Shown: positions 374-11,579, numbered from the stretch's first letter. The stretch: DNA of 64,000 bases from Escherichia phage vB_EcoP_DE5 (MW741821.1), one strand, 5' to 3'. The notes: generated by a model not told the origin, from the letters alone. Translations and numbers: made by a program.

Positions 374-2218
374 TTAGTGTGTATGCATCCAGTTAAGTCC
401 AATCTGACAATCAGATGCCAGAGGACATTCCATGTTCAGATACTCGCCAGCTTTCTTAACACAAAGCTCAGTGTGCTCTTTGAGTTTCTGTACATCATTA
501 CGGTTTACTGAGAATTGACCTTCATCGTGCATATCAATTACCTTAGCACAACGAACCTTATCTTTCTCAATCCACTTGTTAAGGAACATCATAGCATATT
601 TCATAACAACAGCACCAGCACATTGCAGGAGTGTGTTAAGGGCTTTATGAACCATAACCTTACCAGTGGCATCCCGTCTCATTGTAATCTTACGACCATC
701 GACACCAATCAAGTATCCTTGAGCAGCTTTCTCTGTCATACGATCAATGAGGATTGCAATACATGGGTTCTCTGCTAAGAAACGTGCTCGCATCACTGAA
801 CCTTCGTCAGCCCCACCACCTACAATTGAACCGAGCTTAGCATCACCAGCACCATAGTTGAATGCGTAGATAAATGTCTTAGCGTTGTCACGAGTAGGAA
901 GACCAGCAAGTTTCTGGTTGTGGGAGTGGATATCCCCTTCAAGGAGGATGTCACGATACATAATAGCAGAAGCTAAACCACGTTCTGCCAGAGCTTTCTT
1001 AGCTGGATTATTCTCTTCTATTGCTTCAGCAAGCATGTCCCTACACTCTTTAATGAGGTAGTGAGCGAGCATGCGAAGTTCAAGTCCAGAACCATCATAC
1101 CCTAAGAATACTTCTTTACCAGCGGGTATGTAATATTTGTAAGCACCTACAGGTTTGTCTTTCTTCCCCGGCTTACCCTTCTCGTAAATTACGTTAGTAC
1201 CTTTTCGTATATAACAACCATCAGGAACAACGTTAGTAATAATGAAAGGACGAGAATGATCACTGTCTGAGTTATAGTCAGACTCAAACAAACTGCGACA
1301 CTCGTGACCAAACAAACCACGGGAGGGAATATTAACCACGATACGATGTTTGAATCGAAAAGTTGGCGTAGCGCAGCTGTTAGCTTCTGCCGAAAGTTTA
1401 CCATCTTCGCGTTCCTTTGCTATAAGTCCACTGATAAGACCCAGCCTGTGAGCCGCTACAACGCGTCTCTTAAGCAAACTTCCGACACTCCCTAGCTCAC
1501 CCCCTAACCCTTCTTCAAGAGTCTCCTCGAGGTTTGTAGGAGCTGTAGGCCACTTGTTTGATGTGGCTAGTGCTTTCTTAATCTCATCAAACGTTACAGG
1601 ATTACGTCGATTAGGGTTTAATCCCAAACCAAATACGTAAGCCTTCATATAGTTCTTAGTTTTAAACCTAAAATGCTTTTCTAAGAACTTCTTAATATCA
1701 GCGTCAACCATCTTGGCTGTCTGTTTTTGCTTAGCATTACCTCGCATCCAAGCAGTATACCATGCTTGGTATGTTCCATACTTTCTCATATCTTTCTTAA
1801 TTTCGAAAGTATTCCAAGGCTTCTTAGATACGTTAAACTCTGGAGGAAGAAAGCCCTCATCCATAAGAGCTTCTTTAACTCGTGCATCTTTCGATGGGTC
1901 AAAGTCTACGTATTCGACACAGGTGAAAGCTCCACCAATATCTTCTCTCTTCAGCCCAACCCTATCACAATAGGCTTGAGGCCACTTCTGTAAAGCTCCA
2001 GACTTCTTAAACGGCTTCATATAAGTAGAGCCATCTAATCTCATCTTAGGTAAGAGAGGAATCAGTTCTTTGTCAATATTAACAATAATCTCTTTAAGGA
2101 GGTGAACATACCACCGAGCATTTCTTCGGTTGAAACTCACTCCGTGCTTTGCTTGCTTAGAGATTATATCAGCGACAGTCATCTCTGTCAAAAATGGAAG
2201 AGCGTCCGGGTTGCTCAC
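374..2218 (-). CDS. DNA polymerase, family A (polymerase domain only)
   Basis: 614 aa; Pol A motif A-like DGSGLELR, motif B-like RDNAKTFIYAFNYG, motif C HDE; no exonuclease domain in this ORF. Confidence 0.85.
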   Translation of the reverse strand: MSNPDALPFLTEMTVADIISKQAKHGVSFNRRNARWYVHLLKEIIVNIDKELIPLLPKMRLDGSTYMKPFKKSGALQKWPQAYCDRVGLKREDIGGAFTCVEYVDFDPSKDARVKEALMDEGFLPPEFNVSKKPWNTFEIKKDMRKYGTYQAWYTAWMRGNAKQKQTAKMVDADIKKFLEKHFRFKTKNYMKAYVFGLGLNPNRRNPVTFDEIKKALATSNKWPTAPTNLEETLEEGLGGELGSVGSLLKRRVVAAHRLGLISGLIAKEREDGKLSAEANSCATPTFRFKHRIVVNIPSRGLFGHECRSLFESDYNSDSDHSRPFIITNVVPDGCYIRKGTNVIYEKGKPGKKDKPVGAYKYYIPAGKEVFLGYDGSGLELRMLAHYLIKECRDMLAEAIEENNPAKKALAERGLASAIMYRDILLEGDIHSHNQKLAGLPTRDNAKTFIYAFNYGAGDAKLGSIVGGGADEGSVMRARFLAENPCIAILIDRMTEKAAQGYLIGVDGRKITMRRDATGKVMVHKALNTLLQCAGAVVMKYAMMFLNKWIEKDKVRCAKVIDMHDEGQFSVNRNDVQKLKEHTELCVKKAGEYLNMECPLASDCQIGLNWMHTH

Positions 2219-2234
2219 TTTATACTCCTTTAAA

Positions 2235-2657
2235 TTATTGGTAAAGTAAATCTGTAAATGCTTGGTTATCTTCTACTACATTCAGCATGGTTGCTTCATC
2301 ACTATAAGCCCTAACTGTCCCGTTGACAACTGTCCAAGGAGGGGGCGGAGGTGGTGTATGTGTAGCTCTGGCTTCACGAGGTTGTTCTCGTACCAGATGA
2401 GCCACAACCCTCTGATTAGCAACTTCTTCTCTTTCTCTAATAGCTCTCTGAATGTAGGCCAGCTTCATACCCCAAGCTTCTTCAAACTCTTGAGGGTGTT
2501 TATCACTGATAACCACATACTGACGTTCAGGAATACCAGAGCGAATCTCTGATAATAATTCATGGAACAAATCTAGTTCATGTTCAGTGAGATTCATTTC
2601 GATATCATCCCACTTTAGAACTAAGAAACGGTTTTGGTGTCTAGCTGGTAATGGCAT
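2235..2657 (-). CDS. hypothetical protein
   Basis: 140 aa ORF, operon context with polymerase. Confidence 0.45.
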   Translation of the reverse strand: MPLPARHQNRFLVLKWDDIEMNLTEHELDLFHELLSEIRSGIPERQYVVISDKHPQEFEEAWGMKLAYIQRAIREREEVANQRVVAHLVREQPREARATHTPPPPPPWTVVNGTVRAYSDEATMLNVVEDNQAFTDLLYQ

Positions 2658-2820
2658 CCTACTCCACCTCTACTTCAATGTAAGTTCTCTCGCCAACGTC
2701 GTCTTTTAAGACCCATGACTTGGCATCTTCTTCAGACTTAAAAGCTTTCACAACGCTGTATCCCCCTTCCCATTCATCACCGAACCAGCGCTGTCCTACG
2801 TAAATATATTCTTTCATTAC

Positions 2821-9640: not shown

Positions 9641-9649
9641 TCTTGTTCC

Positions 9650-11020
9650 TTAGTTATTTGTTTCCATGTCAAAAGAGATTCCACGACCCGCTTCATCGGC
9701 AAACCGAACTGTACGGGTTTGAGGTTCTAATACTTCAGGGTTGTTAGTAATAAACTGATCAGCGAGACTTCGGCTGACAGCCTCAGCGAGTTCCTCATGA
9801 GAAGGAGTATCAAGATCGGATAGACTGCCTACCACATCTTGGGCCACACCTTCATCAGTCCACACAGCCCTAACAGGTGCGTTGATATCACCAACAGCAA
9901 AACCCTGACCAGAGAACTGACGTGCGCTAACAGTTAAGCCATTTGGTCGACCACGAGAGGGTCTAGCCATCCATCGCTCCATAGAATCACTTGTAATACC
10001 GAGAGCTTCCTCAAAAGATGTTCTACGAGTAGGGCTTACTCTTCGTGACTCTTGTGCTCTACGCATTGCAGGGGCTACAAACACCCCTTCAATTGCATTA
10101 TGTCGGTTAGGTTCTTCTTCCCTTCCAAGCAAATCTCCACCCGTGTTGGTTATTAAGTTTGTCAACCCTTCAGACCAATATGCATAAATCTGACCAGAGC
10201 CATGAACACTTGACATTAACTGAATTTCTTCGTAAGGGATTCCAAAGAATCGACTCATGTCTCGGTTAACACAATATTGAGCACTTGTTGTATCCTCAAC
10301 AAGAGCAACCTGACCTCGTTCGTTGACCAGATGACTAACTGGTTGAGGTGTAGGAAGGTATCGAGTTTGTGCCATATATTGATATGCAACAGATGGAGCG
10401 GAGAATCTTAATACCTGTGAATTAGGCCACTTCTTGTGAACATACTTGATTTCACGACTAGAGACAACCACTGGACAAGGAGAGGTCATAGCCAAATATC
10501 CATGGGGGGTCATGAACAGCTTGTCAAGAGTCATCGCACCACGGCACATCATAGGAAAATTATCCAATACCTCTTCGATAGAAGTGGGATAATTAAACAT
10601 GAATTGGATTCGAGTTCCATTCCACTGAAATTCAATAATATCAGTGAATGTTAATTGAGAAGTTCCTGTGTATGGCTCATCTGTAGCTTCAGCAAGAAGA
10701 GATGAATACTCAATATCTTGTGACTCAAGCCATTCTTTCACATTACTTTCAATCTCTCTTCCAAGAGCTTGCCAACGATCAGTTGGGACGAAAGTATTTT
10801 GAGTTCTTGGTGTTTGTCCTCTGACAATAAAGATATCAATGTCATGTGGAGCTGTGTTATTAAGCACAGCATCACGAACAGCCCCACCAGTAATGATGGG
10901 ACAGATACCGTCTGGAACTAAATTGTTGTTAATCAACTGTTCAATGAAGTGACGACCAACAGTGATATCAGGTTGTTGAGCAACCTTATCTTCAATTTGG
11001 TTAATCGGGATAACAATCAT
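9650..11020 (-). CDS. nucleotidyltransferase, CCA-adding/poly(A) polymerase head-domain family, with unknown C-terminal region
   Basis: ITGGAVRDAVL...HDIDIFIV matches the GGxVRD...DxD signature; start trimmed to MIVIPINQ Met one nt after exonuclease stop. Confidence 0.6.
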   Translation of the reverse strand: MIVIPINQIEDKVAQQPDITVGRHFIEQLINNNLVPDGICPIITGGAVRDAVLNNTAPHDIDIFIVRGQTPRTQNTFVPTDRWQALGREIESNVKEWLESQDIEYSSLLAEATDEPYTGTSQLTFTDIIEFQWNGTRIQFMFNYPTSIEEVLDNFPMMCRGAMTLDKLFMTPHGYLAMTSPCPVVVSSREIKYVHKKWPNSQVLRFSAPSVAYQYMAQTRYLPTPQPVSHLVNERGQVALVEDTTSAQYCVNRDMSRFFGIPYEEIQLMSSVHGSGQIYAYWSEGLTNLITNTGGDLLGREEEPNRHNAIEGVFVAPAMRRAQESRRVSPTRRTSFEEALGITSDSMERWMARPSRGRPNGLTVSARQFSGQGFAVGDINAPVRAVWTDEGVAQDVVGSLSDLDTPSHEELAEAVSRSLADQFITNNPEVLEPQTRTVRFADEAGRGISFDMETNN

Positions 11021-11021
11021 T

Positions 11022-11579
11022 TTACATTTTCCAATATAATGAAGGTGGGTCGTAAGGGTCAAATCCCGTGAGTTCACACAAGAAAAGATAAACCTTAACA
11101 GTTAAGTTAACGTCCTGTTCACAATAAGTAAACATATCTTCAGTGAAAGCATCCCATGCTTCCTCTTGCTCACCGTAGTCACCTTTAAGTTCCTCTAAGA
11201 ACTCACCCCATTGCTTCAAACCATGACCTCTTGGGCCACGTCTAGGGTCGCCTTTCGGATACTCAGGACTGTCGCCAATACGGTCAGGTTTAAGATATCG
11301 ACTAAGACATAAAGTGTCAAAGACGTTAAAATTATATTTAATCAAAGAAGGATACATCTTTTTCAGAGCAGGTAAGTCGAAGTCAATAATATTATGACCC
11401 ACTAGTACATCTGCTTCTGTAAGTTTACGAATCCCATCTTCAATTTGGTGAGGCCGATAGCCCCACCTTTCACCAGTTTCAACATCAAAGATATAAATAC
11501 ACCATACTTTAGTTATGTCATCGTACAGTGCATTACTCTCGATATCAAATGCAAACACTTTCTTCTTTTTCTTTACCAC
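11022..11579 (-). CDS. 3'-5' exonuclease (DnaQ-like), separate ORF
   Basis: 185 aa; Exo I FDIE, Exo II HNIIDFD, Exo III YCEQD. Confidence 0.8.

Follow-up and report, generated by a model that had tools for sequence, protein, structure and literature searches.

Polymerase and 3'-5' exonuclease parts of a T7-like family A DNA polymerase are encoded in separate genes in Escherichia phage vB_EcoP_DE5

The replication genes of Escherichia phage vB_EcoP_DE5 (MW741821.1) raise the question of how a family A DNA polymerase (Pol A) without a proofreading domain might have its errors edited. We analyzed one 64,000-nucleotide (nt) stretch of this genome, referred to here as the window. A first-pass annotation, made from the sequence alone, had noted a polymerase open reading frame (ORF) with motifs A, B and C and no 3'-5' exonuclease domain, and a separate ORF of 185 amino acids (aa) with Exo I, II and III motifs that lies about 9 kb away, next to the primase-helicase gene. 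The pair was read as a split Pol A with proofreading supplied in trans, and the annotation suggested aligning both ORFs to T7 gp5, looking for intein or intron remnants between the loci, and asking whether the exonuclease resembles stand-alone exonucleases more closely than Pol A exonuclease domains. Here, we report that the two ORFs correspond to complementary parts of T7 gp5 and weigh what this arrangement may mean for the replicase of the phage. The coordinates of all features are collected in Table 1.

The polymerase ORF matches the Pfam DNA_pol_A family (PF00476) at 83.1 bits against a cut-off of 34.3 (E = 2.4e-23), with only residues 361-611 covered, and the 'DNA polymerase' family phrog_17 (3.7e-79) at profile positions 836-1233. 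A sequence search of the PDB returned T7 gp5 as the top match (E = 1.8e-32), followed by Klenow (1.5e-6) and Bst Pol I. A MAFFT alignment to the T7 enzyme identified DGSGLELR (D375/E380) as motif A (D-x-S-x-x-E), RDNAKTFIYAFNYG (R443, K447, Y451 and G456) as motif B (R-x3-K-x3-F-x3-Y-G) and HDE at 564-566 as motif C, and the terminal His614 is the counterpart of T7 H704. The catalytic residues of the three motifs are invariant in 41 homologues. The ORF spans T7 gp5 residues ~203-704, and its N-terminus aligns at about residue 203, the start of the thumb, with no exonuclease domain in the chain, just as the first-pass annotation had described. The gene has its own ribosome-binding site (RBS), with a GTG start codon that follows AAGGAG after a 6-nt spacer. 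The stop codon TAA found in frame 18 nt before this GTG excludes a longer N-terminus. An AlphaFold2 (AF2) model of the protein has a predicted local distance difference test score (pLDDT) of 90, and a Foldseek search with this model again placed T7 gp5 first (3.5e-26), with the Pol I enzymes of Bst and Mycobacterium at ~1e-16. Compared to T7 gp5, the polymerase carries three insertions (residues ~128-240, ~325-370 and ~388-420) that amount to ~170 extra residues, the largest of which is a confidently modeled helical module between thumb and palm (pLDDT 83-95). These insertions could provide contact surfaces for a detached exonuclease subunit or for other replisome proteins.

The 185-aa ORF matches Pfam DNA_pol_A_exo1 (PF01612; 34.7 bits, cut-off 23.6, E = 2e-8) and two PHROG families named 'DNA polymerase exonuclease subunit', phrog_38876 (4e-76) and phrog_403 (1.7e-38). 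It spans T7 gp5 residues ~3-196, and the alignment, together with Pfam, upholds the presence of all three Exo motifs: D12/E14 form Exo I (D-x-E), H62-N63...D68 make up Exo II (N-x3-F/Y-D) and Y152...D156 fit Exo III (Y-x3-D). Residues D12, E14, H62, N63, D68 and D156 are invariant across 42 exonuclease homologues with identities down to 31%, and Y152 is kept in at least 90% of these family members. The 65 closest homologues in a collection of 5.8 billion proteins are all stand-alone proteins of 101-247 aa. Because its homologues stand alone with invariant catalytic residues, the exonuclease subunit is a stable family under selection rather than a decaying fragment. The AF2 model built from the 42 homologues has a pLDDT of 94. 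The gene directly adjoins that of the primase-helicase, as the first-pass annotation had stated: the exonuclease GTG overlaps the primase-helicase stop codon (GTGGTAA) within the junction CCGTGGTAA, with GGAG upstream and an overlap of 7 nt. This overlap of stop and start codons suggests that translation of the two genes may be coupled.

Alignment of both ORFs to T7 gp5 showed that they match complementary, non-overlapping parts of the enzyme, residues 5-196 for the exonuclease and ~203-704 for the polymerase, and the junction therefore falls at the linker between exonuclease and thumb. The same relationship is seen on the phrog_17 profile, where the exonuclease aligns at 667-826, immediately ahead of the polymerase part at 836-1233. 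A fused relative from metagenomic data (P0183, 618 aa) is collinear with the two proteins; its residues 5-154 correspond to the exonuclease (36% identity) and residues 168-618 to the polymerase (42%). P0183 carries clade-specific sequence features of the polymerase subunit, and its gene is found on a 45-kb phage contig after a primase-helicase gene and a ligase gene. Identity of the exonuclease and the polymerase to their counterparts falls in parallel, from 49% and 46% in Salmonella phage SE131 to 33% and 39% in Pseudomonas phage SL4, 37% and 30% in cyanophage S-SBP1, and 33% and 27% in T7. A tblastn search of the 64-kb window found one exonuclease-like and one polymerase-like locus, with no second copy of either and no exonuclease remnant beside the polymerase gene. 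The ORF that immediately precedes the polymerase gene (2235-2657, 140 aa) gave no Pfam match and falls in a PHROG of unknown function. The complementary coverage of T7 gp5, the two halves on phrog_17 and the collinearity with P0183 together bear out the proposal of a split Pol A.

We also asked whether the exonuclease is closer to stand-alone exonucleases than to the exonuclease domains of Pol A enzymes, and both sequence and fold favor T7 gp5. A phmmer search against all PDB chains at E ≤ 1 returned only four T7 gp5 sequences, matched over residues 3-178 with E values from 1e-11 to 3e-10. When the exonuclease model was compared to the PDB with Foldseek, the 27 best matches were all T7 gp5 chains (E from 5e-11 to 3e-9), and the next was phiVC8 DpoZ, which is also a Pol A (7e-6); diDNase and TREX1/2, which are stand-alone DEDD nucleases, scored 2e-5 or worse. 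A tblastn search with the exonuclease matched 2,160 of 50,697 phage records. From this ranking, 60 rows were taken at even steps, and nearly all of them coincided with genes annotated as DNA polymerases or as separate exonuclease parts of these, mostly from T7-like phages. The exonuclease is thus nearer to the polymerase-borne domain, and the reading of the two ORFs as a split Pol A therefore holds.

The best megablast matches of window positions 1-14000, searched against the same phage records, were Escherichia phages SkaterBoy_Bas90 (Bas90), FS2B and vB_EcoP_SU10 (SU10), with 96% identity. In all, 109 records were matched, 59 of them with one match over at least 80% of the query, and more than 50 Kuravirus records beyond SU10 and Bas90 match the window closely. 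Because of the 96% identity to SU10 and Bas90, and because SU10 is classified in Kuravirus (Gordonclarkvirinae), we place the window among the phiEco32/SU10-like phages; it comprises most of the genome of such a Kuravirus, a C3-morphotype podophage of E. coli. Kuravirus phages have the identical system, with the same genes, order and neighbors (CDS51 and CDS75 of SU10, gp49 and gp70 of YF01, Bas90_0046 and Bas90_0071), and only small ORFs in the gap differ from the window. The SU10 record labels both genes 'DNA polymerase', and that of Bas90 gives 'DNA polymerase exonuclease subunit' and 'DNA polymerase'. The distance from exonuclease stop to polymerase start is 8,803 nt in the window, in keeping with the 9 kb of the first-pass annotation, ~8.6 kb in SU10, 8.7 kb in Bas90 and ~10.0 kb in WFI101126. 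We considered whether the WFI101126 match, longer by 1.2 kb, reflects an interrupted polymerase gene and rejected this explanation: the polymerase is intact and the extra sequence consists of small ORFs in the gap.

The order of primase-helicase, exonuclease, intervening genes and polymerase on one strand is common to the window, SU10, Bas90, WFI101126, SE131 and SL4. In SE131, a 7-11-like phage of the Grimontviridae, the two parts are likewise split, and genes for dCTP deaminase, PhoH, ThyX and a Dps-like protein again lie in the gap, which is shorter (~6.8 kb); the exonuclease gene is annotated there as a hypothetical protein. In LUZ24-like phages (Bruynoghevirus; tf, PaP3 and SL4) the split is labeled 'DNA polymerase part I' and 'part II', and the primase-helicase gene is followed by an overlapping exonuclease gene, small ORFs and the polymerase gene. 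The gap in SL4 is only ~2.3 kb and, in contrast to that of the window, holds small ORFs without genes of nucleotide metabolism. Alignment showed that the polymerase insertions are common to SE131 and mostly also to SL4. In LUZ24 itself, the polymerase part is reported to contain an intron (PMC3517423). The primase-helicase and exonuclease genes are adjacent in SU10, Bas90, SE131 and SL4 as well. They overlap by 7 nt in the window and by 17 nt in SL4, and are 9 nt apart in SE131. A programmed frameshift that fuses helicase and exonuclease across the overlap and its A-rich run was also considered; we set it aside, given that the junction differs among relatives and that the exonuclease has its own GGAG and GTG.

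Among better-known enzymes, T7 gene 5 protein (PDB 1T7P and 6N7W) is the top match of both parts in sequence and fold, and Exo I-III, the polymerase motifs A, B and C, and the terminal His are all shared; both phages also have an upstream gene for a gp4-like primase-helicase. T7 gp5, however, is one chain of 704 aa that uses host thioredoxin, whereas the window encodes two chains, a shorter thioredoxin-loop, the three insertions and a thioredoxin of its own. T7 and JSF31, both Autographiviridae, have the fused enzyme, and a few small ORFs separate its gene from that of the primase-helicase upstream. Cyanophage S-SBP1 has a split at the same linker behind its primase-helicase gene (gp15, 'DnaQ-like exonuclease', and gp16), such that the exonuclease corresponds to T7 residues 1-185 and the polymerase to residues 212-704. 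The two S-SBP1 ORFs overlap with nothing between them, and the polymerase is 421 aa without the insertions; the split in these marine T7-like cyanophages may be independent. A replicative polymerase with a separate, non-covalently bound DEDD proofreading exonuclease is familiar from the alpha and epsilon subunits of E. coli Pol III. That system pairs a family C polymerase with a DEDDh exonuclease, and it is a functional analogy only, not a homologous system.

The best explanation for these observations, and one we regard as very probable, is that the two genes encode a T7 gp5-type Pol A derived from one gene that was split at the linker, with parts that reassemble non-covalently. Under this model, a gp5-type gene would have undergone fission at about T7 residues 197-203, in an ancestor common to Kuravirus, the 7-11-like phages (Grimontviridae) and the LUZ24-like phages (Bruynoghevirus). 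One origin of the split is suggested because the polymerases of the three groups share the three insertions relative to T7 gp5. The 5' part would have kept its original place behind the primase-helicase gene, to become the present 185-aa DEDDy exonuclease with its own GTG and coupling to the helicase gene, and the 3' part would have become the 614-aa polymerase subunit with a strong RBS of its own. Genes of nucleotide metabolism and small ORFs would later have accumulated between the parts, to give intervals of 2.3 kb (LUZ24-like phages), 6.8 kb (SE131) and 8.8 kb (the window). We propose that the two proteins reassociate as a gp5-like holoenzyme, in which the exonuclease subunit would edit mismatched 3' ends in trans, as epsilon does for Pol III alpha, and that this holoenzyme works alongside the gp4-like primase-helicase and, possibly, the thioredoxin of the phage. 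Proofreading in trans, as put forward in the first-pass annotation, would follow soundly from the split genes.

The phage thioredoxin is a possible processivity factor of the polymerase subunit, which in the alignment retains an insertion, though a shortened one, at the place of the thioredoxin-binding loop of T7 gp5. Such a role for a phage-encoded thioredoxin has been put forward as a hypothesis in the Privateer paper (PMC7881722), and proteomics of SU10 detected both the 69-kDa polymerase and the thioredoxin. The genes of SU10 have been assigned to classes by homology to the mapped phiEco32 genes, with CDS25-68 as middle and CDS69-125 as early (PMC4281155). In SU10 numbering, the exonuclease is CDS75, the primase-helicase CDS76, the polymerase CDS51 and the thioredoxin CDS65; because of these positions, the exonuclease and primase-helicase genes would belong to the early block and the polymerase and thioredoxin genes to the middle block. 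Located between the exonuclease and polymerase genes, the promoter-like region at 8501-8456 (minus strand) contains a sigma-70-like element, TTTACT-16-TATGAT, followed by AAATGTATATA, which resembles the phiEco32 gp36-sigma motif tAATGTATAtA. A further element that fits these classes, TAATGTATA, is found at 4095-4087 (minus strand). Two strong terminator-like hairpins with 11-bp stems and T-rich tails (7525-7497 and 3428-3403, minus strand) also lie in intergenic positions between the exonuclease and polymerase genes, one of them at the position of a terminator annotated in WFI101126. The authors of the SU10 study considered that early transcription may read through into middle genes.

Near its 5' end, the polymerase gene itself contains a separate promoter-like element in sense orientation (2163-2191, minus strand). 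It is a perfect sigma-70 consensus with an extended -10 (TTGACA-17 nt-TATAAT with TG before the -10, 12 of 12 matches) located 27 nt downstream of the polymerase start codon, and transcripts that start from this putative promoter would not include that codon. The element is identical in SU10 and Bas90 and degraded in SE131 and SL4, though the encoded peptide is conserved.

Several points weigh against a reassembling two-subunit polymerase. We infer the binding of exonuclease to polymerase, and the literature searched contained no biochemical work on a split Pol A of the T7 type. With the genes placed in putative early and middle blocks and two hairpins between them, stoichiometric co-expression would not be guaranteed, and the polymerase carries large clade-specific insertions at ~128-240 and ~325-370. 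The 185-aa protein could have come from a polymerase exonuclease domain and now serve as an independent nuclease, in recombination, host-DNA degradation, end processing or as a partner of the primase-helicase, which would leave the polymerase to replicate without dedicated proofreading. Such a role would suit a gene that is linked by overlapping codons to the primase-helicase gene and not to the polymerase gene, in three phage groups, and that is placed in another expression block from the polymerase. The position behind the primase-helicase gene, however, is also the one that fused gp5-like genes occupy with their 5' ends in JSF31, T7 and P0183, with small ORFs intervening in the first two and a ligase gene in P0183. 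Moreover, the exonuclease accompanies an exonuclease-less polymerase in the genomes examined, and in all members of the phiEco32-like group according to PMC9965538; the two proteins diverge at similar rates, and a replicase that copies a 77-kb genome without editing would be unusual. We consider an independent nuclease unlikely. A related idea is that the split serves as a regulatory device. Because the exonuclease would be coupled to the early primase-helicase while polymerase and thioredoxin would lie behind phage-sigma middle promoters, the ratio of exonuclease to polymerase could change, such that fidelity or 3'-end processing shifts in the course of infection, or the exonuclease could have a second role at the helicase. 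This is rather improbable in our estimation.

Two further possibilities deny that the two chains are separate in a meaningful sense. A split intein, trans-splicing or an intron might reunite the two ORFs in a single protein or mRNA, and polymerase genes of this clade do contain group I introns, at motif B in a Kuravirus-like metagenome contig (L010) and as reported for LUZ24. An intein or intron origin, which the first-pass annotation had proposed to check, nevertheless found no support from Rfam, Pfam or the T7 gp5 alignment. At Rfam gathering thresholds, the whole window contains no intron, and only a tRNA-Arg(TCT) was found; no ORF between positions 2219 and 11021 has a Hint, HNH, GIY-YIG or LAGLIDADG domain in Pfam. 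The T7 gp5 alignment covers all 185 exonuclease residues and the first residues of the polymerase, leaving none to spare for split-intein halves at the exonuclease C-terminus or the polymerase N-terminus. In addition, each part has its own RBS and start codon, the gap holds ~24 genes, many with conserved homologues in related phages, the intron of the relatives is at motif B and not at the exonuclease/polymerase junction, and the 69 kDa of the SU10 polymerase is the size of the separate subunit. Rejoining is highly improbable. That the split is an error of assembly or sequencing, or a fused gene that has recently decayed to a pseudogene, is hardly credible: we found no point in favor of this, both ORFs are intact with conserved catalytic residues, and the idea is refuted by the same arrangement in distant families and in at least 59 independent phage records (90-99% identity over at least 80% of the region). 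A split T7 gp5-type enzyme with a separate proofreading subunit remains the reading we prefer.

The arrangement is not new. It is already annotated in GenBank and in PHROGs, and papers of 2012 and 2023 describe the separation as common to phiEco32-like and LUZ24-like phages. Polymerase and 3'-5' exonuclease are separate in all members of the phiEco32-like group (PMC9965538), and a passage in PMC3517423 describes the split in the LUZ24 group and its earlier report for phiEco32. The finding is thus a correct rediscovery. What our analysis adds is the recurrence of this gene order in three phage groups, whose gaps measure 2.3, 6.8 and 8.8 kb, and a probable placement by homology of the exonuclease among the early and the polymerase among the middle genes. 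We attach little weight to it as a discovery; its remaining value is as a natural family A replicase with a detachable proofreading subunit, which would be a convenient system for the study of exonuclease-polymerase communication without a covalent link, and as a possible source of naturally exonuclease-minus T7-like polymerases.

Table 1. Positions in the window of the two polymerase parts, the primase-helicase gene and the features between them.
Feature	Position	Strand	Length and basis
Polymerase subunit (thumb, palm, fingers)	374-2218	-	614 aa; Pfam, PHROG, PDB, AF2
Intervening block	2219-11021	-	about 24 co-oriented genes; Pfam and PHROG scans
PhoH	4107-4844	-	Pfam/PHROG
Nlig-Ia domain protein	5220-5543	-	107 aa; Pfam Nlig-Ia, 2.7e-35
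ThyX	6336-6992	-	Pfam/PHROG
Thioredoxin	7008-7283	-	91 aa; CAPC (not CGPC) active site; Pfam Thioredoxin, 2.1e-13
Dps-like protein	7533-8144	-	Pfam/PHROG
Promoter-like region	8456-8501	-	upstream of SU10 CDS68 homologue, at the published early/middle boundary
dCTP deaminase	9107-9640	-	Pfam/PHROG
Nucleotidyltransferase	9650-11020	-	~457 aa; phrog_12715, 1e-259; PolyA_pol, 9e-4, below cut-off
3'-5' exonuclease subunit (DEDDy)	11022-11579	-	185 aa; PF01612, PHROG, T7 gp5 matches, AF2/Foldseek
T7 gp4-like primase-helicase	11573-13363	-	phrog_239, 1e-175; Pfam DnaB_C, Toprim_2

Pfam and PHROG scans of the block between the two parts confirmed the genes for dCTP deaminase, ThyX and PhoH; apart from the features listed in Table 1, its genes are small ORFs. 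The corresponding interval has 24 annotated genes in Bas90 and 23 in SU10. The nucleotidyltransferase gene lies directly downstream of the exonuclease gene, and its product has a weak match to the head domain of CCA-adding enzymes and poly(A) polymerases; SE131 and SL4 have no nucleotidyltransferase gene at the corresponding position. The protein encoded at 5220-5543 consists only of the NAD+-binding Ia domain of an NAD-dependent DNA ligase, without an adenylation or OB domain. Relatives label it 'DNA ligase' or 'NAD-dependent DNA ligase', which, judging from this domain content, is probably an over-annotation, and the protein might be a modulator of host LigA or an NAD+ sensor.

Mobile elements are found at two of these loci in L010, a 77-kb contig from an ENA (European Nucleotide Archive) metagenome. 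Its polymerase, 88% identical to that of the window, is cut at motif B into ORFs of 454 and 139 aa by a group I intron at 5354-5617 (plus strand; Rfam RF00028 Intron_gpI, 102 bits, E = 5e-27) that is missing from the window. Many ~450-aa matches in the homologue search suggest that an intron in the polymerase gene is perhaps common in relatives. L010 also has an HNH_3 homing-endonuclease gene between its thioredoxin and ThyX genes (533-1024, plus strand); the window lacks this gene, and 15 nt separate thioredoxin from ThyX there.

From position 1 to ~37 kb every ORF of the window is on the minus strand, and from ~38 kb onward the structural genes are on the plus strand; the sign of the GC skew flips at this strand switch (~37-38 kb). 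The sole tRNA gene, tRNA-Arg(TCT), lies at 27469-27544 on the minus strand, with agreement between ARAGORN and Rfam. Upstream of the replication genes is a cluster of genes for enzymes that act on peptide or amide bonds (13583-14002, 14704-15897, 16341-18032, 18451-19554 and 20178-20984, minus strand). Its members are a gamma-glutamyl cyclotransferase, a RimK-like ATP-grasp enzyme, a GlmS-like glutamine amidotransferase, an amidoligase and a COOH-NH2 ligase. The LUZ24-like phage SL4 also has a GlmS-like gene, a few genes upstream of its primase-helicase gene.

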